A stretch of DNA of 60,095 nt, taken from contig JACRFJ010000010.1 of assembly GCA_016217935.1 (NCBI GenBank), forward strand, positions 1 through 60,095. The letters are read 5' to 3'. The translations under genes and the position numbers were made by a program. This stretch comes from Candidatus Kaiserbacteria bacterium (GTDB lineage: Bacteria; Patescibacteriota; Minisyncoccia; Phycocordibacterales; UBA2100). Shown piece by piece: positions 13,581 through 55,589 of the stretch. Below the pieces are notes generated by a model. It was given only the letters and a program-made list of their open reading frames with translations. It made no database searches and was not told the DNA's origin. Positions within the stretch are counted from its first letter, which is position 1. Every line of letters begins with the position of its first letter.

Positions 13581-13807
13581 AAGGATTCTTTATAAAAACT
13601 ATTACTACTATTAGTACTGTGGGCAGCGTGTATAAGTCAATGATTCCTTTGTGCAGAGCCACGATCTCTCAGGCTCGCGTCTGTTGAAAACTCGTGCGTG
13701 AAAGGTGTATGAAATGTGAAGAGGGGGCGGACGCGCGTATCCACAGTCTTCTTCATATGCTTTTCATCAGGTTGTTCTCTCTGAAATGCACACGTAATCC
13801 ACAGGCT
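13581..13807. other. candidate oriC segment (dnaA-dnaN spacer)
   Basis: Contains an AT-rich tract with an ACTATTA repeat at 13588-13617. DnaA-box-like 9-mers are GTATCCACA (13737-13745) and TAATCCACA (13795-13803), each 8/9 to TTATCCACA. Confidence 0.55.
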
Positions 13808-17821: not shown

Positions 17822-17823
17822 AG

Positions 17824-19047: not shown

Positions 19048-19050
19048 GGT

Positions 19051-20064
19051 TTAAAGAGTATTCGTGAATGGGCTTGTGCCCCCGCTCCCATTCAATCCGA
19101 AGATCATATTCCAGATGCCGGACGCCTCGAAGAACACATTGCGAGTGTGCGTCACGGTAAGTGAGACGCTTGCGAGTCCTGTGGATTTTTCCGCGTTGAT
19201 GGTGAGTACGTTCGGCCGACGCTTTTCAGCTGATACCGGGGTGCGGTTTACTTCCCATTCGTATGAAAGCTCTTGCGCAGTCGCACTGTGCGCTGGTGCA
19301 AAGTACGGTAGCGCGACGAATGTGGCCTCCGTGTTTTGGATGAGGTTGGATGTGGTGAGTGCTCGGTGGTACAAGATTCCAAAGAGCGGGCTCTCCTCGT
19401 AGAGAAATAATTCCGGCGTTCGCGCATCGATTCGTACACTGCCCTCTCCCGTCACAGCTGTATCTGCTGTCGCTACCTGTACCGAAACGACGCTCACGTC
19501 CGAGAAAAAGGACGAATCGATCGTCGCGCTTGATTTACCCCGACCCGATTGGAATGCGAGCGTCGTGCCGTTGTGTTTCCATGTATACGTCAGTTGTGTT
19601 GGATCAATCTCGGAACCACTTTTGTATAGGTGCGGTACCGCTTCGATCCGTATCTGTGCCCCCGCACTTGGAAGTGCGCGCCCACGGTAAAAGGGCGGCG
19701 TGTATGTGTCCCCCTCCCAGAGCATGTCGACTCTCGATGGAACGATAAGTGCTTCCGCATGCACGTCGCCAGAATCGCTCTCTGCTGTTATTTCTATTTT
19801 TTCTCCGAGGGCGCCACCGACTATTTCGAGCCGGGTCGCGCCGACTCCTTCGGTGAGGAGTGTCCCGTTTTTTCGCCACGTGATCGTGCTGTTTCCAAGA
19901 TCATGGGAGATGCTCGTGAGCGTGAGTTCGATGCGCTCGTTCGGTTTTGGATATGCAGGCGAGACTCGTATGGAATCTGTGCCACCGAGGCCGGGAATAT
20001 CAAATTGCGCAGATACGGTGATTGGTACGAGGAAAAGCACCAGTGCGGACACGAGGTACTTCAT
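19051..20064 (-). CDS. secreted protein with three Ig/PKD-like repeats, function unknown
   Basis: Has a signal peptide (MKYLVSALVLFLVPITVSA). Three roughly 90-aa repeats each contain a (T/S)(I/Y)xW..N motif: TITWRKNGT, TYTWKHNGT and SYEWEVNRT. Its start overlaps the VirB4 stop by 4 nt. Confidence 0.7.
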   Translation of the reverse strand: MKYLVSALVLFLVPITVSAQFDIPGLGGTDSIRVSPAYPKPNERIELTLTSISHDLGNSTITWRKNGTLLTEGVGATRLEIVGGALGEKIEITAESDSGDVHAEALIVPSRVDMLWEGDTYTPPFYRGRALPSAGAQIRIEAVPHLYKSGSEIDPTQLTYTWKHNGTTLAFQSGRGKSSATIDSSFFSDVSVVSVQVATADTAVTGEGSVRIDARTPELFLYEESPLFGILYHRALTTSNLIQNTEATFVALPYFAPAHSATAQELSYEWEVNRTPVSAEKRRPNVLTINAEKSTGLASVSLTVTHTRNVFFEASGIWNMIFGLNGSGGTSPFTNTL

Positions 20065-22100
20065 ACAACTCCCGGAGTTGCGCGCGGCTGAGCTGCGACA
20101 GTTGGAGCGGCCGACGTGCTCGGAGTCGCGGCAACTGTGAGCGCAGTTGCGAGAGGAGCAGATGGTAGAGGGGCAGCGGCGGGTGCCGTTAGTGAGGGTG
20201 CGGCCGAGGGAGTCGGAAGAGTTCGTTCCGCTGGTTTCGGGGAGGGTGGGTGCAGCGTCTCGCGCCTATCCGCTGCTTCCGGTTCGGTATTCGCGAGTTC
20301 CTGCTTTGCTTTTTTGATTGCGAGAATCTGGGATGGATCAGACGTAATGATTTGATCCTCGGTATATGAGGCAATCACCTTGATCGCAACGTGCTTGAGA
20401 CCGGCGAAGAAGATTCCTTCGCCCACATCGCTCTCGAGGAGCAGGTACTTCTCTTCGTCGGAGAGTTTGAATGTCTGCTGCACGAGGTCAACCGACGTTG
20501 GGGATTGTCGGAGCAGCAGTTGTATCGATGAGTTTGTGATCATCGGGATGCCGTAGGGAGAATTGAGAAAGTCGGAGACGTCCTGTGTGATAGTCGAGAT
20601 CCCGAGATAGTATTTACGGCCGCGTTTTGCGATGCCGAAGAGGAAAGACGCAGTATCTTCAGATCGCATCATCCACCACGCTTCGTCGATAACAAGCAGC
20701 CGCTTGCGCAACTCCTTGCGCACCATATTCCAAATGTGGTGCGTGATGATGTACATCGCCACCGGCTTCAAGTCGTCCTCCATATCGCGCACCGAGAACA
20801 CAACGAGCTTTTTGTTCATGTCCACGTTCGTCGGACGATTCATAAAACCGGACCACGTGCCCTTCGTATACTTCGAAAGGCGCTGCACGAGACTCTCCGA
20901 TCCTTCCATGCCGGAGAGGACCAGTTCGAAATCGGAGAGGAGTGGAGGCTCGACTGCAGCAAAGTTGGCGTCTGGGGTAATATCCTTCAGCGCGTAGGTT
21001 TCTGTGATTGCTTTGTCGATAATGGCATCTTCTTCTGGAGTCAGTCCGCCGAGCATGATACGGAAGAGCCCTACGAGGGTGATGATATTGCTGCGGAGTA
21101 CGTCTGATGGGTTCTCGTCTTCGCGTGGAATCGGGAGGTCGAATGGGTTGATGTGGTGCTCGGAAGAGAGCGAAATGTTGAAATATCGACCGCCGACCGT
21201 TTCTGCCAAGTATTCATACTCTCGCTCCGGGTCGATCACAATCACTTCCGTGTCGAACATGAGCGAGCGCAAAATTTCCAATTTCGTTGTGTACGATTTG
21301 CCGGCACCGGATTTTGCAAAAGTCACTGAGTTGTAGTTTTCGAGTGAGAATCGGTCGAAGAGGATGAGCGACGAATTGTGGCGATTGATGCCGTAGAGAA
21401 TGCCTCTGTCCGAGGTAAGATCAAACGAGATGAACGGGAAAATCGATGAGAGAGGAGCGGAATTCAGTTTCGTGTGCACGTCGAGCTCATCGGTTGCAAG
21501 CGGGAGCACGGATCTGAATCCCTGCTCTTGCTGGAAGAGTGCGGGTCGAATGTAGACAAGGCGTGACTCAAGAATGGAACGCACCTCACTCTCCACCTTG
21601 TCGATTTCTTCGCGGGATGAGCCGTAGAGGGTAAGGTAGAGTCCGACGTCAAAAATCCGCTCTTGCGCTTGTTGGAGAGAGTCGCGTAGCTGTTCGAGGT
21701 CGGAGTAGGCGGTATCGAGCATCGGATCGCGAACCATACCCTTCTCTTCGCGCGTTGAAATTTGACTCTGAACCTCGGCGACTTTCTTCTGAAACTTGCG
21801 GAGCATTTCGTTGGTGTCCATTGGATGGATGAAGATCGAAATGTCGAGTACTTTGTCCATGTTAATGATTGGTGCGAACCACCCCGTCGTAAGGAAGCGG
21901 GGGTATGAAATCACGAAGAATGTGCGCGCGATTTTTTCACCCAGGTCGAGCTCGTGCGAGCTGATTTTGAGGGCGTGCGGCGCAATGACATCCTGCAAGT
22001 TGAGCACACCAGTCTGGTAAATCTCTTCAGGCAGGACCGGCAACACCTGCGGTGCAAGATCTTTTTTCTTGCCAAACGGGAGAAAATCAGCGAGTGCCAT
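20061..22100 (-). CDS. VirB4/TrbE/PrgJ-family type IV secretion ATPase
   Basis: Carries Walker A FAKSGAGKSYTT and Walker B KRLLVIDEAWWMM, plus ISTITQDVSDF. The N-terminal domain matches the ISYPRFLTTGWF pattern. The last ~90 aa form a Pro/Ala-rich tail. Confidence 0.85.
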   Translation of the reverse strand: MALADFLPFGKKKDLAPQVLPVLPEEIYQTGVLNLQDVIAPHALKISSHELDLGEKIARTFFVISYPRFLTTGWFAPIINMDKVLDISIFIHPMDTNEMLRKFQKKVAEVQSQISTREEKGMVRDPMLDTAYSDLEQLRDSLQQAQERIFDVGLYLTLYGSSREEIDKVESEVRSILESRLVYIRPALFQQEQGFRSVLPLATDELDVHTKLNSAPLSSIFPFISFDLTSDRGILYGINRHNSSLILFDRFSLENYNSVTFAKSGAGKSYTTKLEILRSLMFDTEVIVIDPEREYEYLAETVGGRYFNISLSSEHHINPFDLPIPREDENPSDVLRSNIITLVGLFRIMLGGLTPEEDAIIDKAITETYALKDITPDANFAAVEPPLLSDFELVLSGMEGSESLVQRLSKYTKGTWSGFMNRPTNVDMNKKLVVFSVRDMEDDLKPVAMYIITHHIWNMVRKELRKRLLVIDEAWWMMRSEDTASFLFGIAKRGRKYYLGISTITQDVSDFLNSPYGIPMITNSSIQLLLRQSPTSVDLVQQTFKLSDEEKYLLLESDVGEGIFFAGLKHVAIKVIASYTEDQIITSDPSQILAIKKAKQELANTEPEAADRRETLHPPSPKPAERTLPTPSAAPSLTAPAAAPLPSAPLATALTVAATPSTSAAPTVAAQPRATPGVV

Positions 22101-22103
22101 AGA

Positions 22104-22772
22104 TTATTTTTCTGCTGCGCCCGCGAGCGGCATCGGCTTTCCTTCTTCGCCAGGGTTGAACATTTTGTAGAGAAGCTCGATTGCCTCTTCAGTGCCCAAC
22201 TGCACCGTGCGTACACCGGTGCGCACCAAACCTTGCTGCACGATTGCGATTCGCTGCTCGAGCTGCGTTACCTGCTCCTCGAACGTCCGATTTTGTTCTT
22301 CGGCGTTTACTTTTTTCTTGCCAAAGGGGAGGAGGGCACTCGCCCCGCCCTTGGTCGAAAGCGTCGCGGGTGAATACGGCACGACGACAAAGAAATTTTT
22401 CGTCATGATGTTTGCCGCCTCGGTAAAGCTTTTGATAAATTCGATGTACTCTCGAATTTGGATACGCATCAGGTCATCGAGCTGCTCTTTGTATGCGGCT
22501 TCGAGAGTCGCCACGTACGGTCGGATATCGAGCATGCGCGACTGTACGAAAATTTGGACTGAGAAATCGAGCGAGTTGAGAAAATTTTGAAACTGGATGA
22601 TGAAGGCAGTCTGTTCGTCTTCAGATTTGAGCGCAAAGTTGAGTGACGACGCGAGGAGCACGGCGCGGAGCCCTCCGTCTTTCAGCCGCACCACGCCATC
22701 GCGCACTTCAGAAATCGGTACGAACTCCTGCGTCGATCGAGTGTTGGAACGCGTAGTTTCAGTGCCGGGCAT
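22104..22772 (-). CDS. stand-alone VirB4 N-terminal-domain-like protein
   Basis: TQEFVPISEVRDGVVRLKDGGLRAVLLASSLNFALKSEDEQ resembles the N-terminus of Gram-positive VirB4/TraC proteins. It has no P-loop. It shares an LPFGKKK motif, and 20/21 nt at the DNA level, with the N-terminus of the adjacent ATPase. Confidence 0.6.
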   Translation of the reverse strand: MPGTETTRSNTRSTQEFVPISEVRDGVVRLKDGGLRAVLLASSLNFALKSEDEQTAFIIQFQNFLNSLDFSVQIFVQSRMLDIRPYVATLEAAYKEQLDDLMRIQIREYIEFIKSFTEAANIMTKNFFVVVPYSPATLSTKGGASALLPFGKKKVNAEEQNRTFEEQVTQLEQRIAIVQQGLVRTGVRTVQLGTEEAIELLYKMFNPGEEGKPMPLAGAAEK

Positions 22773-22775
22773 AGC

Positions 22776-23273
22776 CTATATACGAGCTTCTTCTGCGGTG
22801 TGAATTGTGACCAGATCTTCGGCAGTGCGCTTCACGTGTCGCTCGTCGTCGTTGGCCACACCCGCGGCGATACGCTCTTTGATGTCGAGCGACCACGCGA
22901 GTTCGTGTAATTTTGAATCCGAGAGTCGCGGGATGTACACCTCCCCTTCCTCTGCAGGTAGGGCTGCTTTCCTGGTCTCTACCGTCGCTTTTTTATATGC
23001 GTTATTCCATAAGTAGAGCTTGGAGCGCACTCCATAGTAGAACGCGTGCTCTATCGCGACGATAAATGGTCTGCCGTTGTACTGTGCGAACGCGAGCGCG
23101 ACCGCCAAGGCGCCGACGAGCGCGATGAAAGGTCCTGCGAGAAGGAGCGGCAAGAGACGCCACAACATGTAAGCAATGCCCGCGCCGCCGCCGAGAAACA
23201 CGAACTGTTTGAACGTCAGCGGTCCGAAGATTTTGTCCTCAACCTCAATGAACTGTGGTACCTGAAATTGCAT
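22776..23273 (-). CDS. PrgI/VirB3-like small membrane protein
   Basis: Has the PrgI-family-type start MQFQVPQFIEVEDKIFGPLTFKQFVFL followed by two TM helices. It sits directly upstream of the VirB4-like genes. Confidence 0.7.
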   Translation of the reverse strand: MQFQVPQFIEVEDKIFGPLTFKQFVFLGGGAGIAYMLWRLLPLLLAGPFIALVGALAVALAFAQYNGRPFIVAIEHAFYYGVRSKLYLWNNAYKKATVETRKAALPAEEGEVYIPRLSDSKLHELAWSLDIKERIAAGVANDDERHVKRTAEDLVTIHTAEEARI

Positions 23274-23280
23274 AGAGAAA

Positions 23281-23985
23281 TTATAACAGTGTTGTGAGAC
23301 TCCCAGGTATCGTTATGCCGCTTTTGTTGAAGTCTAAAAGGATTTTCATAAGCGCATCAGCGGAATGGAGCGAAGAGATGTCCGCTGGGAGCGATCCTTT
23401 TGAGAGGATGCGCGATTCTGGACGTTCTGCACCTGCGTAGTCGAGTAAACTTGAGTATTTGTATGAAGAAAGAAAGCGAGACGCATTATCAATGTTTTCT
23501 ATCCCAACCTGCTCCCAATCCGTGAATTGGAGAGCAAGCGGGTTCAGATGTATGTAGGCCCACAGCCATCGAAAATAGTCGTCGTTCTCTACATGTTGTG
23601 AGCGAAATGGTCGTGTAAATAGAGGCCCGCTGCGTTCGTATTTTGTATTGAAGAACATAGAGTATGCAGTCATGAGCTTTAACATAAATCTTGAGGTTCC
23701 CCCGGCTGCCTTTTCGCGCACTACTAAGTGAAAGTGATTCGGCATAAGTGCAAAAACGAGCAAATCAACGAGCGACTCACCGTCACTTACCCTGAGCAAG
23801 GGTTCCCCTTGCTCAGATTTACGGAGAAGATTGTCGATCCTGACGGGCTTTTTCCTGTTGCACGCTAAAAGAAGCAGCAGAAAGCGCTTATTGTCAGCTT
23901 CAGACATAAAGATCTGCCGCTTCTCTACCCCGCGTGCGTAGAGATGATAATAGTTCGTTTCCACGAATGGCACCTTGCGCTCCAT
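23281..23985 (-). CDS. Y1 HUH transposase (IS200/IS605 TnpA-like / REP-associated RAYT-like)
   Basis: Carries the HUH motif LMPNHFHLVV and the catalytic Tyr motif WAYIHLNPL. The likely start is MERKVPFVETNYYHLYARG (ATG 23985), although the ORF opens at 24063. The gene is visibly lower in GC than the flanking operon. Confidence 0.85.
   Translation of the reverse strand: MERKVPFVETNYYHLYARGVEKRQIFMSEADNKRFLLLLLACNRKKPVRIDNLLRKSEQGEPLLRVSDGESLVDLLVFALMPNHFHLVVREKAAGGTSRFMLKLMTAYSMFFNTKYERSGPLFTRPFRSQHVENDDYFRWLWAYIHLNPLALQFTDWEQVGIENIDNASRFLSSYKYSSLLDYAGAERPESRILSKGSLPADISSLHSADALMKILLDFNKSGITIPGSLTTLL
23792..23816. repeat. 25-bp hairpin repeat CTGAGCAAGGG-TTC-CCCTTGCTCAG (copy B, inside the transposase ORF)
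   Basis: Exact reverse complement of the core of copy A. It is translated as SEQGEPLLR within the Y1 transposase. Confidence 0.95.
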
Positions 23986-24000
23986 CTTCAGAGAATAGCA

Positions 24001-24033
24001 AACTCTGAGCAAGGGGAACCCTTGCTCAGAGTT
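24001..24033. repeat. 33-bp hairpin repeat AACTCTGAGCAAGGG-GAA-CCCTTGCTCAGAGTT (copy A, 5' of the transposase start)
   Basis: Perfect 15-bp stem, read directly from the sequence. Confidence 0.95.
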
Positions 24034-31870: not shown

Positions 31871-31904
31871 ATACTATTTCTACGCTATAGCGTAGAAATA
31901 GTAT
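31871..31904. repeat. 34-bp perfect palindrome ATACTATTTCTACGCTA|TAGCGTAGAAATAGTAT (copy 2 of 2)
   Basis: Has the same core as 849-890, with a compensatory A/T swap that keeps the palindrome perfect. It lies 10 nt after the uvrD stop and upstream of rsmA. Confidence 0.95.
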
Positions 31905-39259: not shown

Positions 39260-40489
39260 TTAGAGTCGCCGCGCAGCTTGCAGTCGGTTGAGGATTTCTG
39301 TAAATGTGTACGGGCTCTCTGCAATCACAAGAATAGTGCGTGTTGGGAACGCGTAATAGAGCTGGATCGTGCCGCTGTCATCGGAAAGTGCTCGCACGTC
39401 GTAATTACGAAAGATCCGATCACTGAAAAAGCGTTCAGTCGGAATGCCGTTCTCTCCCTCGGTGAGCCTGGGTACGTTCGCAAAAATAGGTGCCAAATCC
39501 GCATTCATTGTTTTTTCCCATTCGAGCATACCTGCGAACGCATGATCGTACGAAGTCACCGTCGCGACGACGAATGGCGCGTTCTCATCGACTGTGTGGA
39601 AACCAAAAAAGAATGTATCTCCCAAGGCGCGCAAGAGACTCTCGGGTGGTTGCGCACCAATCGCGTCTGCGAATTCCGCAAAGGTCGCTGGCCTCGTGCT
39701 CTCGCCGAGGCCCACGGTCGGAATGACTCGAATCATTGAGCCGAGCGCGCCACTTGCATTGCGTCCTGCCGCGAGATCGTTTTTCACTGTTTGCGGTGAT
39801 TGCGAAGAGATGGAATACCGCGCGGTCTGCTCTGCGAACACGAGTGCGTCATTCGTGATCTCAACTGGGGTGGTGCCAACTTTTTGTTTTGCAATGAAAT
39901 ACACACCGCTCAGCGCTAAGATGCCGAGTAGTACAAGAAGCGCGACGGTGAAGGCTACTCCGACAAATCGCTGCCGGCGTGGCCTCGATTGCACCTGTGC
40001 ATCTGCGGCAAGCCCACGAGTTTTTTCCTGCTCAAGTGCGACTGCGCGAACAACCGAAATTTTCTGATCGCGGACTACATGTTGAAGATCTTGCTTCAGC
40101 GTATGCACGGGGACAACGGACTCGTGTGCTTCAGCACTCACGTTTTCTTGGATGTGAGGTATGGCTACCGGCCCGGGCTCTCCTGTTTTTGCCGACGCGC
40201 CGAGAATTGTATCGTATTGCTGAGGCGCCTCTTGCGGGGGGAATGCCACGCCGAGATCCCGTCGTTCGGGAAGTTTTACCTCGCTGAGGATCTGAGCGAT
40301 GTCAGATTGCAGGCCTTTTCCTTCATTTTTTGCCGGAGATGACGTTTGTGCTTTGCCTAAAGCACGTTGCTCTTCGAGATGTCCGCCCGACACACTATTT
40401 TTGTGCGGCGCGTCGAGGGGCGCATTCTGAGGAGCTTCCGGGGGTTGCGGTTTGTTATCTGCGCTCGCGTCTGTCTTCTCGTCGGTCAT
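39260..40489 (-). CDS. hypothetical single-pass membrane protein
   Basis: Has a disordered N-terminus, a TM helix (FVGVAFTVALLVLLGILALSGVYFI) and an extracytoplasmic domain of about 210 aa. A GGGAG sits 5 nt before ATG 40489. The gene overlaps the pnp 3' end. Confidence 0.65.
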   Translation of the reverse strand: MTDEKTDASADNKPQPPEAPQNAPLDAPHKNSVSGGHLEEQRALGKAQTSSPAKNEGKGLQSDIAQILSEVKLPERRDLGVAFPPQEAPQQYDTILGASAKTGEPGPVAIPHIQENVSAEAHESVVPVHTLKQDLQHVVRDQKISVVRAVALEQEKTRGLAADAQVQSRPRRQRFVGVAFTVALLVLLGILALSGVYFIAKQKVGTTPVEITNDALVFAEQTARYSISSQSPQTVKNDLAAGRNASGALGSMIRVIPTVGLGESTRPATFAEFADAIGAQPPESLLRALGDTFFFGFHTVDENAPFVVATVTSYDHAFAGMLEWEKTMNADLAPIFANVPRLTEGENGIPTERFFSDRIFRNYDVRALSDDSGTIQLYYAFPTRTILVIAESPYTFTEILNRLQAARRL

Positions 40490-42674
40490 TGCGTCTCCCA
40501 TCGCTTTCCGACGGCGTGAGACCCTTGCGGGCCGCCCACTCCGGATCGGCAGCTTTGATAGAGAGATTATACCTCCCCTTCTCGTCGATTTCTTTAATCA
40601 CGACAGGAACCACATCGCCGATCTGTACGGCATCCGAGATTTTTCCTATGCGGAATGGTGCGACTTCAGATACATGCACGAGACCGTCGAGATTCGGTGA
40701 GATTTTCACAAATGCGCCGAAATCCATCATGCGAACGACCTGACCCTCGAATCTGTCGCCGACCATGTACTCGCGCGTGAGATCTTCGACTTCTTTCAGC
40801 GCAGCTTCTGCGGAACCTTGTTTGCCCGTGATAAAAACGGTGCCGTCCTCCTCAATCGTGATGTCGTCGCATTTCGTGCGATCCTTGATGCCGTTGATTG
40901 TTTTGCCGCCGGGGCCAATCACGAGGCCGATTTGGTCGACCTTGACCCTCGTCGTGAGAATTTTCGGTGCGCGCGGACTGATGTCGCTTCGCGGTGTAGG
41001 AATTGCTTTCAGAATCACGTCGAGAATCTGGAGGCGCGCTTTTTTTGCTTGCGCGAATGCTTCGATGAGCACAGGAACCGGGACACCTTCGACCTTCACG
41101 TCCATCTGTACGCCGGTCACCCCATCTGCCGTGCCCGCGACCTTGAAGTCCATATCACCGTGGTGATCCTCGGGGCCCTGAATGTCGGTGAGGATTTTGT
41201 ACACATTCGTTTTCGCGTCCGACATTCCGCCGGAGGCGGATCCGCCTTTGGCGGACATGAGAAGCCCCATCGCGATGCCTGCGACCGGTTTTTTAATCGG
41301 CACACCGGCATCCATGAGTGCCAACGTGCTCGCACAGACTGTTGCCATCGAAGTCGAGCCATTTGAAGCGAGACATTCGGAGACGATGCGTATCGTATAC
41401 GGAAAGGATTCTTTTTCCGGCAGCACCGATCGAAGTGATTTTTCTGCAAGCGCTCCGTGACCAATCATACGTCGATTCATGCCGCCAACGCGTCCCGTTT
41501 CGCCGACGCTAAACGGCGGGAAGTTGTAGTGAAGCATGAACGTCTTCTTCGTGTCCTGAAATTCGATCGTATCGATGAGCTGTGCGTCGCCCGGACCGCC
41601 CAATGTGAGCGCGGCAAGTACATGTGTCTGGCCACGGTAGAAAAGACCCGCGCCGTGAATGATCGGAGAAATACCGCCTGCTTGCGCAAAGAGCGGTCGG
41701 ATTTCTTCGAATCCTCTGCCGTCGACACGTTTCCCCTCTTTGATCGCGAGATCGTGCACATATTCGTCCATGCGATGCTCGAAGTAGCTATCGAGCGCTT
41801 GGGGTTTTGTCTCCAGGAATTTTAATGCCGCTTCTTTCATCCATATGCTCTTGAGTTCATTGATTTCAGTTTTGCCGATCTTTCCGCCGTATGAAGCGAG
41901 TTTCGGGTCGACGATTTCTGCGAATGCGGGAGCGAATTCCGGGGTGTCCGTCGGAGCGACGAATGACTGCTTCGTGACATTGCGCTCTGCCACAATCTGT
42001 TTTTGCCACGTCTGGATTTTCTCGATCTCCTCGCTTGCACGCGCGAGTGTCGTTGCGAGAATTTCTTCTCTGACTTCGCGCGCGTTAACCTCGATCATGT
42101 TGATAAGACTATCTTTACCGCAGACCGTGAGATCGAGGAGTGCTTTCGGCGGCAGCTCGTCGCTGCGCTGTCCGTACGTCGGATTCACGATCACCTCTGC
42201 ACTGTCCTCTTTCACACCAAGACGAACTGCAGAGACAGGACCGCTCCACGGAATGTCTGAAGTAGCGATTGCAAGCGATGCGGCATTCACCGCGAGGATG
42301 TCGGTATCGTAATCTTCAATCGAGAGGACCGTAATGATCACTTGCACGTCGCGCTTCAAGCCTTTCGGGAAAAGCGGACGGATCGTACGGTCCACAATCC
42401 GACCGGAGAGTACCGCTTCGTCAGAGGGTCTCCCCTCGCGACGCACGAATCGCGAGCCCAGGATCGCACCCGCTGCATAGAATTTTTCTTCGTACTCGAC
42501 TGAAAGCGGGAAGTAATCGAGGTTCGATTCGCGATTCGACATTACGACGGTGGCCAAGACTGCACTGTTGCCGTACCTGAGAAGCACCGAACCATTTGCC
42601 TGATCCGCCCAATCATTGAATTCGGCGGTCATCGTCTTGCCCCCAATGTCGAGGGAGTATTCTTTTTTTTGCAT
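40455..42674 (-). CDS. pnp: polyribonucleotide nucleotidyltransferase (PNPase)
   Basis: Has two RNase PH domains (GPEDHHGDMDFKVAGT), a KH domain (IGLVIGPGGKTINGI) and an S1 domain (GDRFEGQVVRMMDFGAFVKI). Confidence 0.96.
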   Translation of the reverse strand: MQKKEYSLDIGGKTMTAEFNDWADQANGSVLLRYGNSAVLATVVMSNRESNLDYFPLSVEYEEKFYAAGAILGSRFVRREGRPSDEAVLSGRIVDRTIRPLFPKGLKRDVQVIITVLSIEDYDTDILAVNAASLAIATSDIPWSGPVSAVRLGVKEDSAEVIVNPTYGQRSDELPPKALLDLTVCGKDSLINMIEVNAREVREEILATTLARASEEIEKIQTWQKQIVAERNVTKQSFVAPTDTPEFAPAFAEIVDPKLASYGGKIGKTEINELKSIWMKEAALKFLETKPQALDSYFEHRMDEYVHDLAIKEGKRVDGRGFEEIRPLFAQAGGISPIIHGAGLFYRGQTHVLAALTLGGPGDAQLIDTIEFQDTKKTFMLHYNFPPFSVGETGRVGGMNRRMIGHGALAEKSLRSVLPEKESFPYTIRIVSECLASNGSTSMATVCASTLALMDAGVPIKKPVAGIAMGLLMSAKGGSASGGMSDAKTNVYKILTDIQGPEDHHGDMDFKVAGTADGVTGVQMDVKVEGVPVPVLIEAFAQAKKARLQILDVILKAIPTPRSDISPRAPKILTTRVKVDQIGLVIGPGGKTINGIKDRTKCDDITIEEDGTVFITGKQGSAEAALKEVEDLTREYMVGDRFEGQVVRMMDFGAFVKISPNLDGLVHVSEVAPFRIGKISDAVQIGDVVPVVIKEIDEKGRYNLSIKAADPEWAARKGLTPSESDGRRNDRREDRRERR
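41226..41255. repeat. 30-bp double-hairpin element (copy in pnp, in frame)
   Basis: Reads TCCGCCGGAGGCGGA TCCGCCTTTGGCGGA. Its reverse complement matches the rarA copy at 29/30 positions. It is translated as SAKGGSASGG. Confidence 0.95.
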
Positions 42675-45241: not shown

Positions 45242-46426
45242 ATGGAGCCGCTTGCATCGAAGATACGTCCGACAACGCTCGACGAATTCGTCGGCCAAGA
45301 ACATCTGACAGGCCCGGGCAAACCCGTGCGTGTCGCGACCGAAAAGAAAGAACTCTTTTCATTTATATTGTGGGGCCCGCCTGGCTCGGGCAAAACGACA
45401 CTCGCGCGGATTTATGCCAACGCACTCGATGCAGAATTTCACGAGGTCTCTGCAGTCGAGGCGGGCAAAGATGACATCAAAAAAATCATTCCGAAACGAG
45501 GGACGCTCGCGATTTTGAAACCAGTGATTCTCTTCGTCGATGAAATCCATCGATTCAATAAAGCACAGCAGGATTTTCTACTTCCCTTTGTCGAGCGTGG
45601 CGATCTTACGCTGATCGGTGCAACCACCGAGAACCCTTCGTTTGAAGTGATCGCTCCACTTCTCTCTCGCTGTCGCGTGTTTGTGCTCAATGAGCATAGC
45701 GAGAAAGAAATGGAGAAAATAATTGCGTACGCTGCGAAAAAAATCTCCGCCAAAGGCGGATCCGCCTCGGGCGGAAAAATCCCGAAAGATGCACGCGATT
45801 GGCTTATCGCGATGGCACAAGGTGATGCCCGCCAAGCAATCACGGTGCTTGAAACCGCAAAAAAATTGTATGGCGAGATTTCGATTGAATCGCTCAAAGA
45901 TGCGATCCAATCGAAACACCTTCGCTACGACAAAAAAGGGGAAGAACACTACAACATCATCTCCGCATTCATCAAATCAATGCGCGCATCGCAGCCGGAC
46001 GCTGCGCTCTACTACCTCGCACGCATGGTGAAAGCGGGTGAGGATCCCAAATTCATCGCGCGACGCATGGTGGTTTTCGCATCGGAAGACATCGGGCTTG
46101 GTACACCGACCGCGCTCGTAGTCGCCAATGCGGTATTTCGCGCGTGTGAAACGATTGGCTACCCCGAATGTGCGATCAATCTCGCGCACGGAGTCGCGTA
46201 TTTGGCGAACGCCGAGAAAAGTCGCGCATCATACGATGCGTATCAGGAAGCGGTCTCCGATGTGGAGGAGCATGGCAATCTCCCGATTCCCATGAAAGTG
46301 CGCAATGCACCGACGAAATTGATGAAAGAGCTCGGATACCACAAAGGCTACACACTGTATGACAAAGATTCATATCTGCCGGACAAAATAAAGAAAAACA
46401 AGTATTTGAAAGGAGAAAAAAACTGA
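45242..46426 (+). CDS. rarA: replication-associated recombination protein A (RarA/MgsA)
   Basis: Carries ILWGPPGSGKTTLA and ILFVDEIHRFNKAQQD, plus the C-terminal MgsA domain (HYNIISAFIKSMRASQPDAALYYLARM). Confidence 0.93.
   Translation: MEPLASKIRPTTLDEFVGQEHLTGPGKPVRVATEKKELFSFILWGPPGSGKTTLARIYANALDAEFHEVSAVEAGKDDIKKIIPKRGTLAILKPVILFVDEIHRFNKAQQDFLLPFVERGDLTLIGATTENPSFEVIAPLLSRCRVFVLNEHSEKEMEKIIAYAAKKISAKGGSASGGKIPKDARDWLIAMAQGDARQAITVLETAKKLYGEISIESLKDAIQSKHLRYDKKGEEHYNIISAFIKSMRASQPDAALYYLARMVKAGEDPKFIARRMVVFASEDIGLGTPTALVVANAVFRACETIGYPECAINLAHGVAYLANAEKSRASYDAYQEAVSDVEEHGNLPIPMKVRNAPTKLMKELGYHKGYTLYDKDSYLPDKIKKNKYLKGEKN
45746..45775. repeat. 30-bp double-hairpin element (copy in rarA, in frame)
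   Basis: Reads TCCGCCAAAGGCGGA TCCGCCTCGGGCGGA. It is translated as SAKGGSASGG and flanked by AAAATC on both sides (45740-45745 and 45776-45781). Confidence 0.95.
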
Positions 46427-46754: not shown

Positions 46755-46915
46755 CGCGCCCTCCTCTGAAACCTGTATGTATTGTATCGAAGATCACTCT
46801 GTACAAGTGTCAGCGTGTGGAGAGTGGTAAAATATTGTGCGACACCTCTACGCCGAGGCATCGAGGTGCACACATGGCTACAGATCTACATTCGCCGCTC
46901 AAGAATCAATTCCTC

Positions 46916-46945
46916 CCGGCCCGAGGCCGGTCCGCCTCGGGCGGA
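46916..46945. repeat. 30-bp double-hairpin element (intergenic variant, supplies the xerC SD)
   Basis: Reads CCGGCCCGAGGCCGG TCCGCCTCGGGCGGA. The second hairpin is identical to the rarA copy. The GGAG at 46943-46946 lies 7 nt before the xerC ATG. Confidence 0.9.
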
Positions 46946-46953
46946 GAATACCT

Positions 46954-47883
46954 ATGAAGGATGTAACGCATCTGAAGACTGATTTTTTGGAGTATTTGGA
47001 AATCGAAAAAGGTCGCAGCGTGAAAACGGTCGAGAATTACGACCGGTACCTCAGGCGATTTTTCTCGTTTGCAAAAGTAAAATCACCTGGCCAGATAACA
47101 GAGAAATCTGTTCGCGAATTCCGCATCTCGCTCAATCGATCCGCGGGTGTGAGTGGTACGATGAAAAAGAATACGCAGAATTATCACCTGATCGCACTCC
47201 GCGCATTTCTCAAATTTCTGCGCAAGCGGGACGTGGAGTCGCTGAATCCAGAGCGGATTGAACTCGCGAAGACCGGTGGACGTGATCTCGATCTCATCAC
47301 CGCCGACGAGCTCAATCGTCTGATCCGCGGCCCGCAGGGTGATTCGCTCCAAGCGCTTCGTGATCGCGCGATGCTCGAGCTTCTCTTCTCGACCGGCCTT
47401 CGTGTTTCCGAACTCTGCTCACTGAATCAAGATCTCGATCTTTCGCGCGACGAATTTTCGGTGCGCGGCAAGGGCGACAAGGTACGCGTCGTCTTCCTTT
47501 CGGCATCAGCCAAAAAAGCGGTGGCGGATTATTTGAAGAAGCGGGGCGATTTTGGAGAAGCGCTTTTTGTGGGGTATAGCTCGATCAAGAAAGGCCCCTC
47601 GACTCCGCTCGGGACAAGCAAAGATCTCTCCCGCCTCACGCCGCGGTCAGTGGAACGCATCGTAAAGCGCTACGCGACAAAAGCAGGCATCACGCGCAAG
47701 GTCACGCCGCACGTGATTCGGCACTCATTTGCGACAGATTTGTTGGAAAACGGAGCAGATCTTCGTTCGGTACAAGCACTTCTCGGACATGCCAACATCG
47801 CGACCACGCAGGTGTATACTCACGTGACCGACAAACACCTCCGCGAGGTGCATAAGGCTTTTCACGGTAAACGAAGGCACTAG
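46954..47883 (+). CDS. XerC/XerD-type tyrosine site-specific recombinase
   Basis: Has an N-terminal SAM-like domain (FLEYLEIEKGRSVKTVENYDRYL). Catalytic residues lie in TGLRVSEL, HVIRHSFAT and LLGHANIATTQVYTHV. The ORF opens at 46837. Confidence 0.9.
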   Translation: MKDVTHLKTDFLEYLEIEKGRSVKTVENYDRYLRRFFSFAKVKSPGQITEKSVREFRISLNRSAGVSGTMKKNTQNYHLIALRAFLKFLRKRDVESLNPERIELAKTGGRDLDLITADELNRLIRGPQGDSLQALRDRAMLELLFSTGLRVSELCSLNQDLDLSRDEFSVRGKGDKVRVVFLSASAKKAVADYLKKRGDFGEALFVGYSSIKKGPSTPLGTSKDLSRLTPRSVERIVKRYATKAGITRKVTPHVIRHSFATDLLENGADLRSVQALLGHANIATTQVYTHVTDKHLREVHKAFHGKRRH

Positions 47884-49488: not shown

Positions 49489-49497
49489 CGAAGGCAT

Positions 49498-49521
49498 CTG
49501 AGCAAGGGTTCCCCTTGCTCA
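49498..49521. repeat. hairpin repeat CTGAGCAAGGG-TTC-CCCTTGCTCA (copy C)
   Basis: Matches copy B at 24/25 positions. It lies 10 nt after the xth stop. Confidence 0.9.
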
Positions 49522-49556
49522 AACTCGAGGATGTCCGTTATCCACAGGTCTTGTCC

Positions 49557-51563: not shown

Positions 51564-51635
51564 TGCTCCCGGAGGGATTCGAACCCCCAAGAGCAGTTCC
51601 GAAGACTGCCGTGATATCCGTTTCACCACGGGAGC
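51564..51635 (-). tRNA. tRNA-Arg (anticodon UCG)
   Basis: Hand-folded as GCUCCCG/CGGGAGC acceptor, anticodon arm GCAGU-CUUCGGA-ACUGC, and T-loop UUCGAAU. 72 nt, no encoded CCA. Confidence 0.85.
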
Positions 51636-51801
51636 GTTGGTGCATGATACATCTTTTTTCGTTCGATGCGATTTTTTGTGCGCGCGTCAAAGTACGTCGA
51701 CATACGAAGTAAGCAGATTCTCTCCTCTGCGAGCGTTTTTCTGCAGATAAGTGTTAAGAAAACGTAACATTTCGACATTGCAAAATCTGTATCCATGCGC
51801 A

Positions 51802-52203
51802 CTATGCGTGGAACCAAAGAATATTTTCTATGGATGCACTCTCTCTTGCACCCGGGAAAAACCGCACGAGCGGCCACTCCCCTGCGCCTTCGTACTGCTG
51901 CACCAGCATCGGCAAGATGGTCGCGAGATCTCGCTCGCGCGAATTGATGTCGTCGCGCTGTTTGAGGAGAAGGCGTTTCAAAATCTCGGGTGATTCCGGC
52001 GCGAAGACTGCTTTCTTGTCTGCTTCATGCGTGCTGATCAGGCCCCTTTTCATAAGCGATTCGAGCTGCACATAGGTGGTGGAACGATTCACCTTGGCGT
52101 GTTTGGCGAGCTTTTCAGCCGTGGTTTGCCCCAGTTCGAGTGAGGCGAGGTATACGCGTGCCTCTTTCTCGGAGAGCCCAATGTCCTGCAACTCTTTCAA
52201 CAT
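51802..52203 (-). CDS. TrmB-family HTH transcriptional regulator, N-terminal domain only (possibly truncated)
   Basis: Carries LSEKEARVYLASLELGQTTAEKLAKHAKVNRSTTYVQLESLMKRGLI. The product is 133 aa and is followed by about 165 nt of non-coding sequence. Confidence 0.7.
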   Translation of the reverse strand: MLKELQDIGLSEKEARVYLASLELGQTTAEKLAKHAKVNRSTTYVQLESLMKRGLISTHEADKKAVFAPESPEILKRLLLKQRDDINSRERDLATILPMLVQQYEGAGEWPLVRFFPGARESASIENILWFHA

Positions 52204-52308
52204 CCCGGCATTCTAACACGCAGCACTCTCGGCGCGATTGCGCTTGCTCAAAAGAATACGCGTTTAAATTTTTTTCGACCAAAGAGGTGAAGCTGTGGTC
52301 GATATCGT

Positions 52309-52336
52309 TTGATATACGCTCGCATGTCTGTATAAT
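52309..52336 (+). promoter_or_regulatory. promoter TTGATA-N16-TATAAT for tRNA-Gly(GCC)
   Basis: Both boxes are near-consensus. The tRNA 5' end (52347) lies 10 nt (52337-52346) after the -10. Confidence 0.6.
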
Positions 52337-52346
52337 CCTCGAGAAC

Positions 52347-52417
52347 GCGGGCATGGTTTAATGGTAGAACGCTACCTTGCCAAGGTAGAGATCGGAGTTC
52401 GATTCTCCGTACCCGCA
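52347..52417 (+). tRNA. tRNA-Gly (anticodon GCC)
   Basis: Hand-folded with acceptor GCGGGCA/UACCCGC (one mismatch), anticodon arm CUACC-UUGCCAA-GGUAG and T-arm CGGAG-UUCGAUU-CUCCG. 71 nt, no CCA. Confidence 0.85.
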
Positions 52418-52469
52418 CTAGGAACGAGTGAAAAGCGAAAATAAATTTTCGCGAGTGCTGAAGTATACG

Positions 52470-53414
52470 CTACTTCTTCGCAGGAGGAAGTTGGATCACG
52501 CTCGCAACGGCGGGGCTGTTGCGCAGTGCTGCGTAGAGACCCGCGGCAGCGATCACGACCAGCATGACCGGGATCCAGAAGGTACCGCGGCAGCTCGGGA
52601 GCAAGAACCAGAATCCGAGGAGAAGGACGAATGGGGTGAGGATTGCGGCGATTGGGATTGCAATGTGTCTGTCGCTGAGCGGTGGTTCTGCAAGTGCTAC
52701 AAACGCTGCGATAATAACGAAGATCGCAAGCAAGATAAACCACAGACGATACGCACCCTGGAGTGCGCACACCCCGCGGAGCGTGTCCTTTACGCCGCCG
52801 ACTACCGGGCTCGAGCTCGGACTACCCGAGTTCGACTTCCCTCCTCCCAAAGAGCCAGCACCTGTATTTCCCTTGCTCGGAGATGGCGTTGGAGCTGAAT
52901 TGGAACCGCCACCCGAAGAGGCACTACCTCCTGTCGGCACTCCACCTGAAGTGCCCGGTGTCGCACCGGATCCAGAAGGCATACCTGCGCCGGTCGCTCC
53001 GAAAGTGACGACCACGAGGCATGTCTTTTGCTGTACAGCCGAGAGAAGGGTTAGTGTCGCGGTACTCCCGCGCGCAACTGATTCCGTATCAACATGAATG
53101 CGAAGACCGCCGTTTGGGTCGACACGGCGCACCATATGGTTAAACGGGATTGAGGTATTACCAGCAGTACCGAGAACGGCCACATATGAGGGGTCGACGA
53201 TGGTGACATCGAAGGAATCCATCGTACCGTTGTACACGTATGCGGTCACCTCGCGAACCTGGAGCTCTGTGCACGTGCTCTGGCCTGGCGGTAGGATCTG
53301 ACGAGCCTGGACGTTGAACGATTCTGAGGCAAACGTAGGTGCAGGTGTGGCGATTACGGAAAAAGAGAAGAGGCCCACGAGAGCGAAACCTGCAAAATAT
53401 ACGGCGGGCTTCAT
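52470..53414 (-). CDS. hypothetical envelope protein: secreted beta domain + Gly/Ser-rich linker + C-terminal multi-TM anchor
   Basis: Has a signal peptide (MKPAVYFAGFALVGLFSFSVIA), a roughly 70-aa G/S/P/T linker and 3-4 C-terminal TM helices. Confidence 0.7.
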   Translation of the reverse strand: MKPAVYFAGFALVGLFSFSVIATPAPTFASESFNVQARQILPPGQSTCTELQVREVTAYVYNGTMDSFDVTIVDPSYVAVLGTAGNTSIPFNHMVRRVDPNGGLRIHVDTESVARGSTATLTLLSAVQQKTCLVVVTFGATGAGMPSGSGATPGTSGGVPTGGSASSGGGSNSAPTPSPSKGNTGAGSLGGGKSNSGSPSSSPVVGGVKDTLRGVCALQGAYRLWFILLAIFVIIAAFVALAEPPLSDRHIAIPIAAILTPFVLLLGFWFLLPSCRGTFWIPVMLVVIAAAGLYAALRNSPAVASVIQLPPAKK

Positions 53415-53800
53415 ATAATCCTTACGATGCCGACACCGTAGTACCTGAAAACGCTTGCGTCAAGCAAATATGCATGTTGTAACATAGATCCGATGAGCTT
53501 GCGGCAGCAAGTTGCGTTTCAAGGACATTTCTTTCTGCACATTTCGAATTGCGAAAGATAAACGGACGAAACGAGATTTCAAAAGTCGAAAATATGACGA
53601 AACTGGGGAAAACTATGGGGATATGTGGATAACGGACACGCATATCACTGTCTAATAGAGGTCCATGAATACACGAATTATCCTTATTGTGAGCCGTATT
53701 ATTTGAAAGACGTAAAGGACAATCCGAGGGGCGGATTATGAAGATTCTGAATGTTTCTTAAGTAACACATTGGCGTGCATTTCACGTGAAAGGCTTCATA

Positions 53801-54211
53801 ATGTTCCTTATGGAGAAATTTTCGAAGAGACGACGCCTCGGAAATGTCGGGGAGGAAATTGCGTGTGAATTTCTGATACGGAAGGGTTTTAAGCTGCTTG
53901 AGCGAAACTATCTGCGTCCGTGGGGTGAGATCGATATTATCGCCTTTGGAGTCGGGATAGTGAGGTTTATAGAGGTCAAATCGGTTTCCGGCCATCTGAG
54001 CAAGGACTTTTCACGTGAAAAGTCCTACTTGCCTGAAGAGATGGTACACGTGAAAAAGCTCAAAAAGCTTGCTCGAACCGCGACCCTATATATGGAAGAA
54101 AAGAAAGACCCACGTCCGTACCAAATTGACGTGATTGGGGTTATCATAGACGCTGAAAAGAGGGCAGCCAGATGTCGTTTTTTCGAGCAGGTACTCGACG
54201 ACATCATATAA
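53801..54211 (+). CDS. YraN-family (UPF0102) endonuclease-like protein
   Basis: Carries GEEIACEFLIRKGFKLLERNYLRPWGEIDIIA and FIEVKS. The start is uncertain: GTG 53786, ATG 53801 or ATG 53810. Confidence 0.8.
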   Translation: MFLMEKFSKRRRLGNVGEEIACEFLIRKGFKLLERNYLRPWGEIDIIAFGVGIVRFIEVKSVSGHLSKDFSREKSYLPEEMVHVKKLKKLARTATLYMEEKKDPRPYQIDVIGVIIDAEKRAARCRFFEQVLDDII

Positions 54212-54278
54212 AGGACAGGCTATGTCCTATAAAATGTCCTTTAGAATCTATGTTAGTATACCCCGTTAGTAGATCATC

Positions 54279-54349
54279 CGGGCTGTCGTATACCGGTAGT
54301 ACGCGTGCTTTGGGAGCACGTAGACTGGGTTCAATTCCCAGCAGCCCGA
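54279..54349 (+). tRNA. tRNA-Pro (anticodon UGG)
   Basis: Hand-folded with acceptor CGGGCUG/CAGCCCG, anticodon arm CGUGC-UUUGGGA-GCACG and T-arm CUGGG-UUCAAUU-CCCAG. 71 nt, no CCA. Confidence 0.85.
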
Positions 54350-54353
54350 AAAA

Positions 54354-55517
54354 TTAGTGGATTATCTGTTTAAGAAGCACTCCTATGAGGTAAGGAGCTT
54401 GATCTTTTGTGAAATCAAAGGTCTGCGCGCTCGGGTCACCCCGCAGCGTCAGGTCGAGATCAAAACCACTCTGTGCGAGCAGGTCTGCACTTATATAACT
54501 GAGTGTGATCGCACGAAGATCGCGTTCAGCGGTGGTCGCTCCCAGACTGGTGGTCGTGATGATGCCAATGAGCCTGTCCCACGCGTTTACGACGCCGCCT
54601 CCTGATGAGCCGCTTTGTGCTCCGATAACGCCGCCCACCGAAATGAGATCGACGGTCGGGCCAGTTATGGTGAGAAGCTGCTTTATAGAAGTCACTGACG
54701 TAGCCGAATACAGATTGTCGTATGTTGCGTACCCGCCGAGGAATTCTGCAGGGTAGCTTGCGACGAGAACATCATCGCCCACGAAACCGATAGTCTCTCT
54801 CGCATCTGGCTGCAGATACGGAAATGAAGAGGGCAATGGCGTGCCATCAAGACTGCTCGCAATGTGAATGAGGGCGTAATCGTGCTCGCCTGTACCGAGT
54901 GGATGCGACGCCAGGATGTCTTTCGCATGTGCTTCAACCCAAGCCTTGGGGAGATACATGACTCGGGGTGCGTAGCGCGCTTTGGCAGGGGAACCCACGC
55001 GTAACTCGCAGCGGAGATCTACCTGCGCTGCTTCGGAGAGGAGTACATACTGAGCCACGTGCGCATTGGTAAGCACGACACCTCTCGGGTCGATGATCAC
55101 GCCGCTCGCAGAAATTGGATGCAAGGAGCCGCCGGTGCGAGGAACGCAGAGGATGTTGACGAGGGCGGCACGCGCATGGTCATTAATCGTCGTGAAAGGA
55201 AGTGGGGGAGTTGTGTATGGTTTTTCGACTCGCCTCACTTCGGTAGAAGTCGCGGACTCAGGTTTCATGGCTTTTTTAGTGGATTTTTGAGGACTCTTTG
55301 TCTCACCTGCGATGGCGTCGGTTGTAGTCGTCACAACAACCTCAGTCGACGACGTGGCGGTATCTGTACTTGCCCCTGATGCGACTTGTGATGTGGATAC
55401 GCCGATCAACGTCGAATGGGGCTCAATATTGGCAAGCCTCGTAAATGCAATAAATGCGCCGATCAGAAAAATGAGGAGTCCAATCTGGATTATGAGGAAG
55501 CGCTTTTTTGGAACCAT
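54354..55517 (-). CDS. membrane-anchored trypsin-like (S1) serine protease
   Basis: Has a TM helix (FLIIQIGLLIFLIGAFIAF) and the catalytic triad contexts TNAHV, DYALIHI and GSSGGGV. The ATG at 55517 lies 2 nt after the tRNA-Gly(UCC) 3' end. Confidence 0.85.
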   Translation of the reverse strand: MVPKKRFLIIQIGLLIFLIGAFIAFTRLANIEPHSTLIGVSTSQVASGASTDTATSSTEVVVTTTTDAIAGETKSPQKSTKKAMKPESATSTEVRRVEKPYTTPPLPFTTINDHARAALVNILCVPRTGGSLHPISASGVIIDPRGVVLTNAHVAQYVLLSEAAQVDLRCELRVGSPAKARYAPRVMYLPKAWVEAHAKDILASHPLGTGEHDYALIHIASSLDGTPLPSSFPYLQPDARETIGFVGDDVLVASYPAEFLGGYATYDNLYSATSVTSIKQLLTITGPTVDLISVGGVIGAQSGSSGGGVVNAWDRLIGIITTTSLGATTAERDLRAITLSYISADLLAQSGFDLDLTLRGDPSAQTFDFTKDQAPYLIGVLLKQIIH

Positions 55518-55518
55518 G

Positions 55519-55589
55519 TGCGGGATGGGAGAATCGAACTCCCGACCCAAGTTTGGAAAACTCGTGTTTTACCACTAAACTAATCCCGC
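55519..55589 (-). tRNA. tRNA-Gly (anticodon UCC)
   Basis: Hand-folded with acceptor GCGGGAU/AUCCCGC, anticodon arm CGAGU-UUUCCAA-ACUUG and T-arm GGGAG-UUCGAUU-CUCCC. 71 nt, no CCA. Confidence 0.88.

Follow-up and report, generated by a model that had tools for sequence, protein, structure and literature searches.

Why do two unrelated genes of one bacterium carry the same short palindrome in frame? This question is raised by a 60,095-nt stretch of DNA from Candidatus Kaiserbacteria (Patescibacteriota; GCA_016217935.1, contig JACRFJ010000010.1), which is called the window here and was assigned to Kaiserbacteria (Patescibacteria) by its protein homologues. The palindrome is a 30-mer double hairpin, which we named E; compared loci bear L-numbers and compared proteins P-numbers. 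Comparison of empty and filled sequences showed that E is a discrete insertion, an exact 30-bp block without target duplication. In our view, E is probably a non-autonomous palindromic mini-element of the REPIN type (doublets of repetitive extragenic palindromes, or REPs, that form hairpins), with a likeness to Rickettsia palindromic elements (RPEs) as well. The copies in the window and the two genes that host them are as follows.

40455 to 42674, minus strand: pnp, encoding PNPase (two RNase PH domains, KH and S1); host of E copy 1.
41226 to 41255, minus strand: E copy 1, canonical, in frame in pnp; SAKGGSASGG forms PNPase residues 474-483.
45242 to 46426, plus strand: rarA/mgsA, encoding an AAA+ ATPase; host of E copy 2.
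45746 to 45775, plus strand: E copy 2, canonical, loops AAA/TCG, in frame in rarA/mgsA; SAKGGSASGG forms residues 169-178.
46916 to 46945, plus strand: E copy 3, variant CCGGCC-CGA-GGCCGG TCCGCC-TCG-GGCGGA; frame 0, reading PARGRSASGG, in an upstream open reading frame (uORF) before xerC.

The copy in pnp is TCCGCCGGAGGCGGATCCGCCTTTGGCGGA (on the gene strand TCCGCC-AAA-GGCGGA TCCGCC-TCC-GGCGGA), and the copy in rarA is TCCGCCAAAGGCGGATCCGCCTCGGGCGGA, with 29/30 identity to the reverse complement of the first. Both open reading frames (ORFs) translate their copy as SAKGGSASGG. The third copy, CCGGCCCGAGGCCGG+TCCGCCTCGGGCGGA, has the second hairpin of the other copies and a first hairpin that is changed yet perfect. 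A preliminary description of this DNA had claimed the reverse-complementary doublets in the two genes, the identical decapeptide, and a third copy whose first hairpin alone was altered by compensation; the sequences agreed with it on all three points. The window has no exact 6-3-6/6-3-6 double hairpin beyond these three copies. Five exact matches to the 15-mer TCCGCCNNNGGCGGA lie in it, and ten with up to two mismatches, against 3.8 ± 2 matches in shuffled sequences, where ten were reached in 0/100 shuffles.

E consists of two inverted 15-nt units with zero spacer, each unit comprising a 6-bp G+C stem, a purine-rich triloop and the returning 6-bp stem, and it is therefore the same on either strand. 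The loop of the 5′ hairpin is NRA, with A at position 3 in 238/252 cases (strands pooled), and the loop of the 3′ hairpin is hence TYN. The loop pairs are not independent and recur in classes such as AAA/TCC and AGA/TTC, which suggests propagating sub-families. DNA folding predicted a minimum free energy of −12.5 kcal/mol for the two-hairpin form, and a single long hairpin was nearly isoenergetic.

Sub-families with CCAGCC-N3-GGCTGG or TCAGCC-N3-GGCTGA as the second hairpin also recur across genomes, sometimes beside a canonical first hairpin; the former type is present in L079, L104 and L259. Copies of the sub-families lie at these positions.

L079: 2306.
L104: 42 and 116.
L259: 10243.
L189: 12019.

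Empty and filled forms of the same site could be compared in two genes. In pnp, the empty site of L205 (CTC ATG/AGT GAC, the slash marking the junction) corresponds to CTC ATG-(30 nt)-AGT GAG in L122, and the PNPase proteins of the two loci are 93% identical. In rpoC, the empty site of L290 (CAA AAG AGC/AAG ATT CAG) corresponds to CAA AAA TCC-(30 nt)-AAA TTA CAA in L292. Exactly 30 bp were gained in each pair, with no target-site duplication.

A pattern with 24 fixed bases, TCCGCCNNNGGCGGATCCGCCNNNGGCGGA, was used to search for E elsewhere; its chance expectation is approximately 0.002 matches in 596 Gb. At least 120 loci matched in 185,579 species-representative genomes, and there were at least 120 matches in metagenomes. 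The flank statistics (124 genome-set and 123 metagenome copies), the frame counts and the host labels given here refer to the matches listed. The pattern search that had been proposed as a check thus found further copies in abundance, and the idea of a discrete palindromic insertion element was borne out by exact 30-bp insertions at many unrelated sites in many genomes.

The genome matches were all metagenome-assembled genomes (MAGs), mostly of Patescibacteria of many classes. Other hosts, by submitters' labels, were Omnitrophota, Kiritimatiellae/Lentisphaerae/Verrucomicrobiota, Planctomycetes, Ignavibacteria/Bacteroidota, Chloroflexota, Margulisiibacteriota, Firestonebacteria, Auribacterota and Desulfotomaculaceae. 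The window holds three copies in 60 kb, and extra degenerate copies occur in E-positive loci; control loci held three copies in 1.28 Mb, and relatives hold approximately 2 per Mb. Phages were rejected as the vector of E, with just two matches in IMG/VR. Literature searches did not find the 15-mers or the peptides, and found the 12-mer in no relevant context.

In a Kiritimatiellae MAG (L005; 4569-4752 and 6390-6572), E lies inside a repeated unit of approximately 185 nt, for which no coding partner was identified. In an Uhrbacteria MAG (L120; 6186 and 7179), it lies within a palindromic context, CCCCCTTT..GACAAGGGGGCG. E can therefore ride inside other repeats or insert into them. A larger autonomous element bounded by single E hairpins was also considered and rejected, as most of the seemingly isolated TCCGCC hairpins turned out to belong to degenerate doublets, of which they form one half.

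The flanks of E carry a bias in place of a footprint. The preliminary description had listed short direct repeats flanking each copy in the window. These repeats are present, but they are not target duplications. The tabulation of flanks that it had suggested went against such duplications, as an abutting direct repeat is missing in 112/124 genome-set copies, and none occurs in the empty/filled pairs. Nor is the repeat beside the rarA copy conserved: where the window has AAAATC/AAAATC, the same insertion is flanked by AAAATA/AAAGTG in L123 and by CAAATG/AAAGTC in L128. Relatives without E already show a K-[LI]-x-x-K-[IM] periodicity at this site. Positions −1 and +1 are free, with T(−2) in 106/124 and A(+2) in 96/124 genome-set copies. 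The bias is a feature at the DNA level, because it held in non-genic copies (T(−2) 19/20, A(+2) 17/20) and in the metagenome replicate (T(−2) 104/123, A(+2) 103/123). In general, E is flanked by T-rich DNA on the 5′ side and A-rich DNA on the 3′ side, on both strands.

Within genes, E behaves as a tolerated insert. Inside ORFs of at least 150 aa lie 66 of the 124 genome-set copies. All three frames of E are open, and frame 0 reads SAxGGSAxGG. The numbers of genic copies per frame were 55:3:2 and 65:8:2 in two samples (p ~1e-21 each), so that frame 0 accounts for 120/135 in total. Its two orientations are also unequal (SAKGGSASGG 23, SAGGGSAFGG 2). Such a skew in frame and orientation is what a protein-level filter acting on frame-blind insertion would be expected to produce. 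The suggestion that a length of 10 codons and a Gly/Ser/Ala reading allow survival in ORFs fits the use of frame 0 in 55/60 and 65/75 genic copies.

The positions of the inserts in the proteins agree with this. The decapeptide had been placed in a loop of PNPase, and the AlphaFold model supports that placement: the insert lies in a surface-type loop (474-490, pLDDT <50) between strands 465-473 and 492-495. The model is moderate (mean pLDDT 65.6) and was used for local loop assignment only. Solved PNPase structures have a gap at this position, a turn between two beta-strands. The RarA insert is aligned with a naturally variable, long loop of E. coli MgsA. The proposed alignment of orthologues was carried out, and the decapeptide was absent from 116/120 of the closest PNPase orthologues (76–83% identity) and from 80/83 aligned rarA sequences. 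Elsewhere, the hosts of E include rpoB, rpoC, dnaE, pheT (two copies), S41 peptidase (two copies) and hsdR, and a large YD-repeat-like protein contains three copies.

Other inserts were seen at the same kinds of sites. Where the window has E, the rarA of L134 (10499-10650) has an unrelated insert of approximately 21 residues, QKNARPVRDKNAKRSGDAS, and this loop appears to be a general indel hotspot. A variable loop of RpoC (~150-180; P0121-P0181) carries E in some lineages and decayed forms, FSAKGGLPTGKSGK, in others. Unrelated short inserts in the same loop (...AKASADK.../...AKASAGK... and ...PPGARLAKGG...) could be further palindromic elements of small size. E has another site in RpoC, at residue ~590 (P0157, P0203).

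The hairpins of E are maintained. For pnp, rarA and rpoC, the orthologous copies were recognised by their protein motif or by alignment, which left codon choice unconstrained. Among them, the synonymous third positions of the stems differ in 0/78 cases, and those of the flanking codons in 49/90; the loops vary by point substitutions. A protein-level motif was rejected as the cause because of this codon identity in the stems. We infer that a joint requirement for peptide and hairpin may freeze the sequence, because every third codon position in the stems is paired with a first position. Variant copies, collected by sequence similarity, contained 19 compensated changes of stem pairs and 5 broken pairs. 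In an alignment of 16 distinct copies, 8/12 stem pairs showed change on both sides, a covariation that was matched by 0/500 shuffles and that collapsed when the pairing register was slid. The window copy at 46916 and its orthologue in L134 (13126), which have the same flanks, differ by two compensatory pairs and zero uncompensated changes. The hairpins may be kept by selection, by a requirement of propagation, or by self-templated correction of a quasi-palindrome.

Stems frozen at synonymous sites and hairpins kept by covariation would also be expected of a module selected by the host, either as a Gly/Ser linker or as a DNA or RNA structure for protein binding, RNA processing or pausing, or uptake. 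The copy before xerC points the same way, since it is conserved with its uORF in two genomes and places GGAG 8 nt before the ATG. We consider such a module improbable. A protein motif explains neither the identical codons nor the non-genic copies, most orthologues of every host gene lack E, and the sites are unrelated loops of unrelated proteins. In the Rfam scan of the window, only four tRNAs reached gathering scores and E matched no family at this threshold. The T-rich 5′ and A-rich 3′ flanks are the opposite of those of an intrinsic terminator.

It is scarcely credible that E arose artificially in sequencing, assembly or binning, as an adapter, a linker or a mis-assembled palindrome. Such an artefact would be consistent with the origin of every match from a MAG or a metagenome contig and with the GGATCC at the centre of E. 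However, the same orthologous codons carry E in independent projects and assemblers, including contigs of up to 1.6 Mb (MFD project). Orthologous copies differ by loop point substitutions, the genic copies are concentrated in frame 0, and variant copies with covarying stems lack GGATCC.

What might move E is suggested by its architecture. The preliminary description had named a nearby Y1 transposase as a candidate mobiliser. The gene exists and lies with its own palindromes at the following positions.

23281 to 23985, minus strand: Y1 (HUH) transposase, similar to REP-associated tyrosine transposases (RAYTs); PF01797, E-value 1.7e-5; HUH motif PNHFHLVV, and YIHLNP.
24004 to 24030: Y1-cognate 27-bp palindrome, TCTGAGCAAGGG-GAA-CCCTTGCTCAGA, just upstream of the Y1 ATG.
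23791 to 23817 (inside the Y1 gene, in frame) and 49497 to 49523: further copies of TCTGAGCAAGGG-N3-CCCTTGCTCAGA.

The presence of a Y1/HUH gene in the window, together with a doublet of hairpins as expected for the substrate of a RAYT dimer, would make mobilisation of E in a REP/RAYT system conceivable. We regard this as highly improbable for the window's gene, and its role as mobiliser did not hold up. The gene has a different palindrome of its own, upstream and inside, which is a family distinct from E. The copy inside the gene reads SEQGEPLLR (27 bp, 9 codons), and an in-gene copy also occurs in L208. The Y1 family has at least 565 loci in Patescibacteria, where it is common. Most of 80 sampled homologous loci (within L208-L289) have genome-specific palindromes at fixed offsets from the HUH motif, approximately −280, −70 and +430 to +450 nt, an arrangement that we read as REP/RAYT architecture; no TCCGCC-type palindrome was found among those flanking the 80 homologues. 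The 769 kb around Y1 genes contain a single E-like double hairpin, and the window's Y1 family, sought with a hidden Markov model, was absent from E-positive loci except L036.

Other candidates were also negative. A tblastn search of the window with IS608 TnpA and E. coli RayT gave no match. An insertion sequence (IS) with E-type ends was not found in 1.6 Mb of E-positive loci. An IS200-like gene 700 bp from E in L066 was rejected, because the hairpins near it are unlike E.

The history of E could be followed among Kaiserbacteria, where its three sites are occupied as follows.

pnp site: window, L122, L123, L124.
rarA site: window, L123, L128 (one stem mismatch).
xerC leader: window, L134.

Other relatives that are no more distant, among them L121, have no E at these sites. 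In a tree of PNPases, the E-bearing four do not group as each other's nearest relatives, and the E-bearing rpoC genes do not either. A single gain with simple vertical descent was rejected for pnp on account of this scatter, which would fit repeated gain or repeated loss. The rarA gene of L123 is a mosaic, window-like around E and L121-like elsewhere, which suggests recombinational spread.

These observations bring in a different explanation, in which E is a relic of a few ancient insertions that are now inherited and shuffled by recombination, with hairpins kept by self-templated (quasipalindrome) correction. Each of the three copies in the window has a counterpart at the orthologous site of some other Kaiserbacteria, loops differ by point substitution over intact stems, the L123 mosaic is of the kind that shuffling would leave, and the L128 copy is decaying. 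We hold a relic to be possible but rather doubtful. More than 240 sampled copies in many genes and phyla with the same stems would require many independent insertions at some time. There are also extra copies in E-positive loci, and sub-families recur across genomes (CCAGCC-N3-GGCTGG in the three loci given above).

Several points weigh against E being a REPIN-like mobile element. No recent insertion event was seen, and the closest empty/filled pair has approximately 85% DNA identity. Metagenomes yielded no empty form of the rarA site of the window. At the pnp insertion, 36 extra nt (CTC ATG plus E) and not 30 set the window apart from L121, a syntenic relative that is empty there. The copy number of E looks low, with tens per genome at most as judged from the loci. 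In pnp, E is shared at the same nucleotide site by four non-sister lineages, and in rpoC at the same site by at least three. The weak T/A preference cannot explain identical sites in non-sister lineages; the sharing needs precise loss, recombinational spread of E-bearing alleles, or unrecognised targeting. No mobiliser was found, and the only nearby Y1 family has a different palindrome and does not co-occur with E. Finally, ordinary vertical co-evolution of REPINs and RAYTs sits badly with stems that are identical in different phyla.

The 36 extra nt of the window (within 41220-41264) are identical to the corresponding nucleotides of L122 and lie 3 nt upstream of the orthologous site. This identity hints that a piece of a filled pnp allele was transferred.

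With these points taken into account, the REPIN-like mini-element is still the reading that we favour, and it would work as follows. E would move through single-stranded DNA in its two-hairpin ("clover") form. The reaction would be catalysed in trans, by an enzyme that recognises hairpins and whose cutting and joining duplicate nothing. In architecture, a dimer of the HUH/Y1 type, like those of IS200/IS605 or RAYT, would fit best, though not the product of the Y1 gene of the window. An insertion in an ORF would keep the frame, as E has 10 codons and no obligatory stop. Selection would then retain mostly SAxGGSAxGG copies that form a flexible loop, chiefly in the Lys/Ser orientation. Vertical descent and homologous recombination would also spread E-bearing alleles among related lineages or keep them there. 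In pnp and rarA, E is probably of no benefit to the cell.

A further possibility, to which we assign a minor chance, is that E is a new minimal form of selfish DNA that crosses sites and phyla, either through an unknown, widespread hairpin-specific enzyme or without any enzyme. On the enzyme-free route, mini-hairpins (GNA-type) would make E a nuclease-resistant fragment of environmental or degraded DNA. This fragment would be ligated into breaks or gaps at A+T-rich sites of competent, repair-poor bacteria, such as those of the candidate phyla radiation (CPR). Either route, if true, would account for the same stems across phyla, the absent footprint and the lack of a linked transposase, and would make loops of essential genes the main refuge of E.

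E was compared with known systems of short palindromes. REPs and REPINs are overwhelmingly extragenic, carry a GTAG/CGTC tag, are genome-specific and lie beside their own RAYT (PMC3116915, PMC3733652). In P. fluorescens SBW25, the most abundant REP 16-mers overlap genes in only 14 of their 1,067 occurrences, and the alternative between two hairpins and one long hairpin has been discussed in connection with RAYT dimers (PMC3116915). E resembles REPINs as a non-autonomous, inverted doublet of short G+C-rich hairpins (two 15-nt units) for which both alternative folds are predicted and whose stems are strongly conserved and covarying. HUH chemistry predicts no target duplication, and E has none. 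In contrast, no cognate RAYT flanked by E was found when the window's Y1 clade and 80 homologues were compared. About half of the classifiable copies of E lie inside ORFs (66/124 in the genome set), and its ends are TCCGCC/GGCGGA with no GTAG/CGTC tag. REPINs are also longer, whereas E has 30 bp, zero spacer and the same stems across phyla.

RPEs (Ogata et al. 2000, as summarised in PMC10969869) are elements of approximately 100–150 bp in about ten families, confined to Rickettsia and related genera. E resembles them as a palindrome that lies in frame in many unrelated and often essential genes, encodes a fold-compatible peptide and has an unknown mobiliser. Length and host set it apart from RPEs, as E has 30 bp and occurs in many phyla of free-living or episymbiotic uncultivated bacteria.

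Elements derived from IS200/IS605 and associated with palindromes (PATEs) share with E two hairpins on one strand, as bound by a TnpA dimer, and insertion without duplication. Seamless excision of the IS608 kind ("peel-and-paste") would explain the clean empty sites of E. IS608 ends depend on cleavage sites and guide tetranucleotides that lie beyond the hairpins, and its specific target of 4–5 nt is one-sided. The hairpins of E are instead flush with both ends, its T(−2)/A(+2) bias is symmetric at approximately 80–85%, and no TnpA is linked to it.

In cyanobacteria, Elhai and colleagues reportedly described in 2008 mobile-looking repeats of 21–27 nt, restricted to Nostocales, which leave no obvious footprint, sometimes enter other sequences and mostly lie within other repeats. 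These have other sequences than E and are not typically in frame in housekeeping genes. The GC clusters and byps of yeast mitochondria are short G+C-rich palindromic inserts in coding genes, and byps are skipped by ribosomes. They share with E the A+T-rich surroundings; they are organellar, while E is an open frame of 10 codons with no bypass.

[quoted passage not shown] E is non-autonomous and consists wholly of two 15-bp terminal inverted repeats, but it makes no target-site duplication of fixed length. Intrinsic terminators are a poor match, as the flanks of E are T-rich upstream and A-rich downstream and most copies lie inside ORFs. DNA uptake sequences (DUS) and uptake signal sequences (USS) occur at approximately 1 per kb, arise by substitution and are family-specific, whereas E is sparse, arises by insertion and is shared across phyla. 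In its working, E is closest to a REPIN, and in its in-frame life within unrelated genes it is like an RPE. It lacks what defines membership of both, and is not a MITE of the DDE type.

The copy before xerC had been called intergenic in the preliminary description. It does lie upstream of xerC, but it is in frame 0 of a 27-codon uORF.

46874 to 46957, plus strand: uORF of 27 codons, MATDLHSPLKNQFL-PARGRSASGG-EYL*, duplicated from the XerC N-terminus and since diverged; carries E copy 3.
46954 to 47883, plus strand: xerC-like tyrosine recombinase; the main ORF starts MKDVTHLKTDFLEYLEIEKGRS.

The stop of the uORF overlaps the start of xerC (ATGA), and the GGAG 8 nt before the xerC ATG is provided by E copy 3. 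L134 has the same arrangement of uORF and xerC (13087-13167). E probably entered the N-terminal coding region of xerC between FL and EYL, because the XerC proteins of relatives (L121, L123) begin MAxDLK..LK.QF, the uORF version. A tandem duplication would now provide the intact XerC N-terminus. The arrangement looks like either a duplication rescuing an N-terminus disrupted by E or a translationally coupled leader. E may have been co-opted here as uORF, hairpin and Shine-Dalgarno sequence.

If the REPIN-like reading is correct, E would be among the smallest insertion elements described, and the lower size limit of mobile DNA would fall. One conserved sequence would have colonised core genes in much of the tree of uncultivated bacteria. 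E would also serve as a clean natural experiment that shows in which protein loops a Gly/Ser/Ala insert of 10 residues is tolerated. Its motif explains recurrent SAxGGSAxGG indels in CPR marker proteins, which can disturb phylogenomic alignments and orthologue clustering, and it is a possible marker of gene flow among Patescibacteria. The question raised is what carries a 30-mer across phyla without a footprint.

Some other features of the window were noted. A 28-bp palindrome, CTAT(A/T)TCTACGC-TATA-GCGTAGA(T/A)ATAG, lies in short intergenic gaps at 856-883 (before polA) and 31874-31901 (between ksgA and uvrD); the pair could be a further REP-like family or bidirectional terminators. A type IV secretion or pilus-like cluster (T4SS pilin, TraG-like ATPase and PrgI; 17132-23273) adjoins the Y1 gene. 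The window has four tRNA genes (51564-55589). The genes dnaN and dnaA lie at 12483-15157, and the replication origin is therefore probably near 15.2–15.7 kb.

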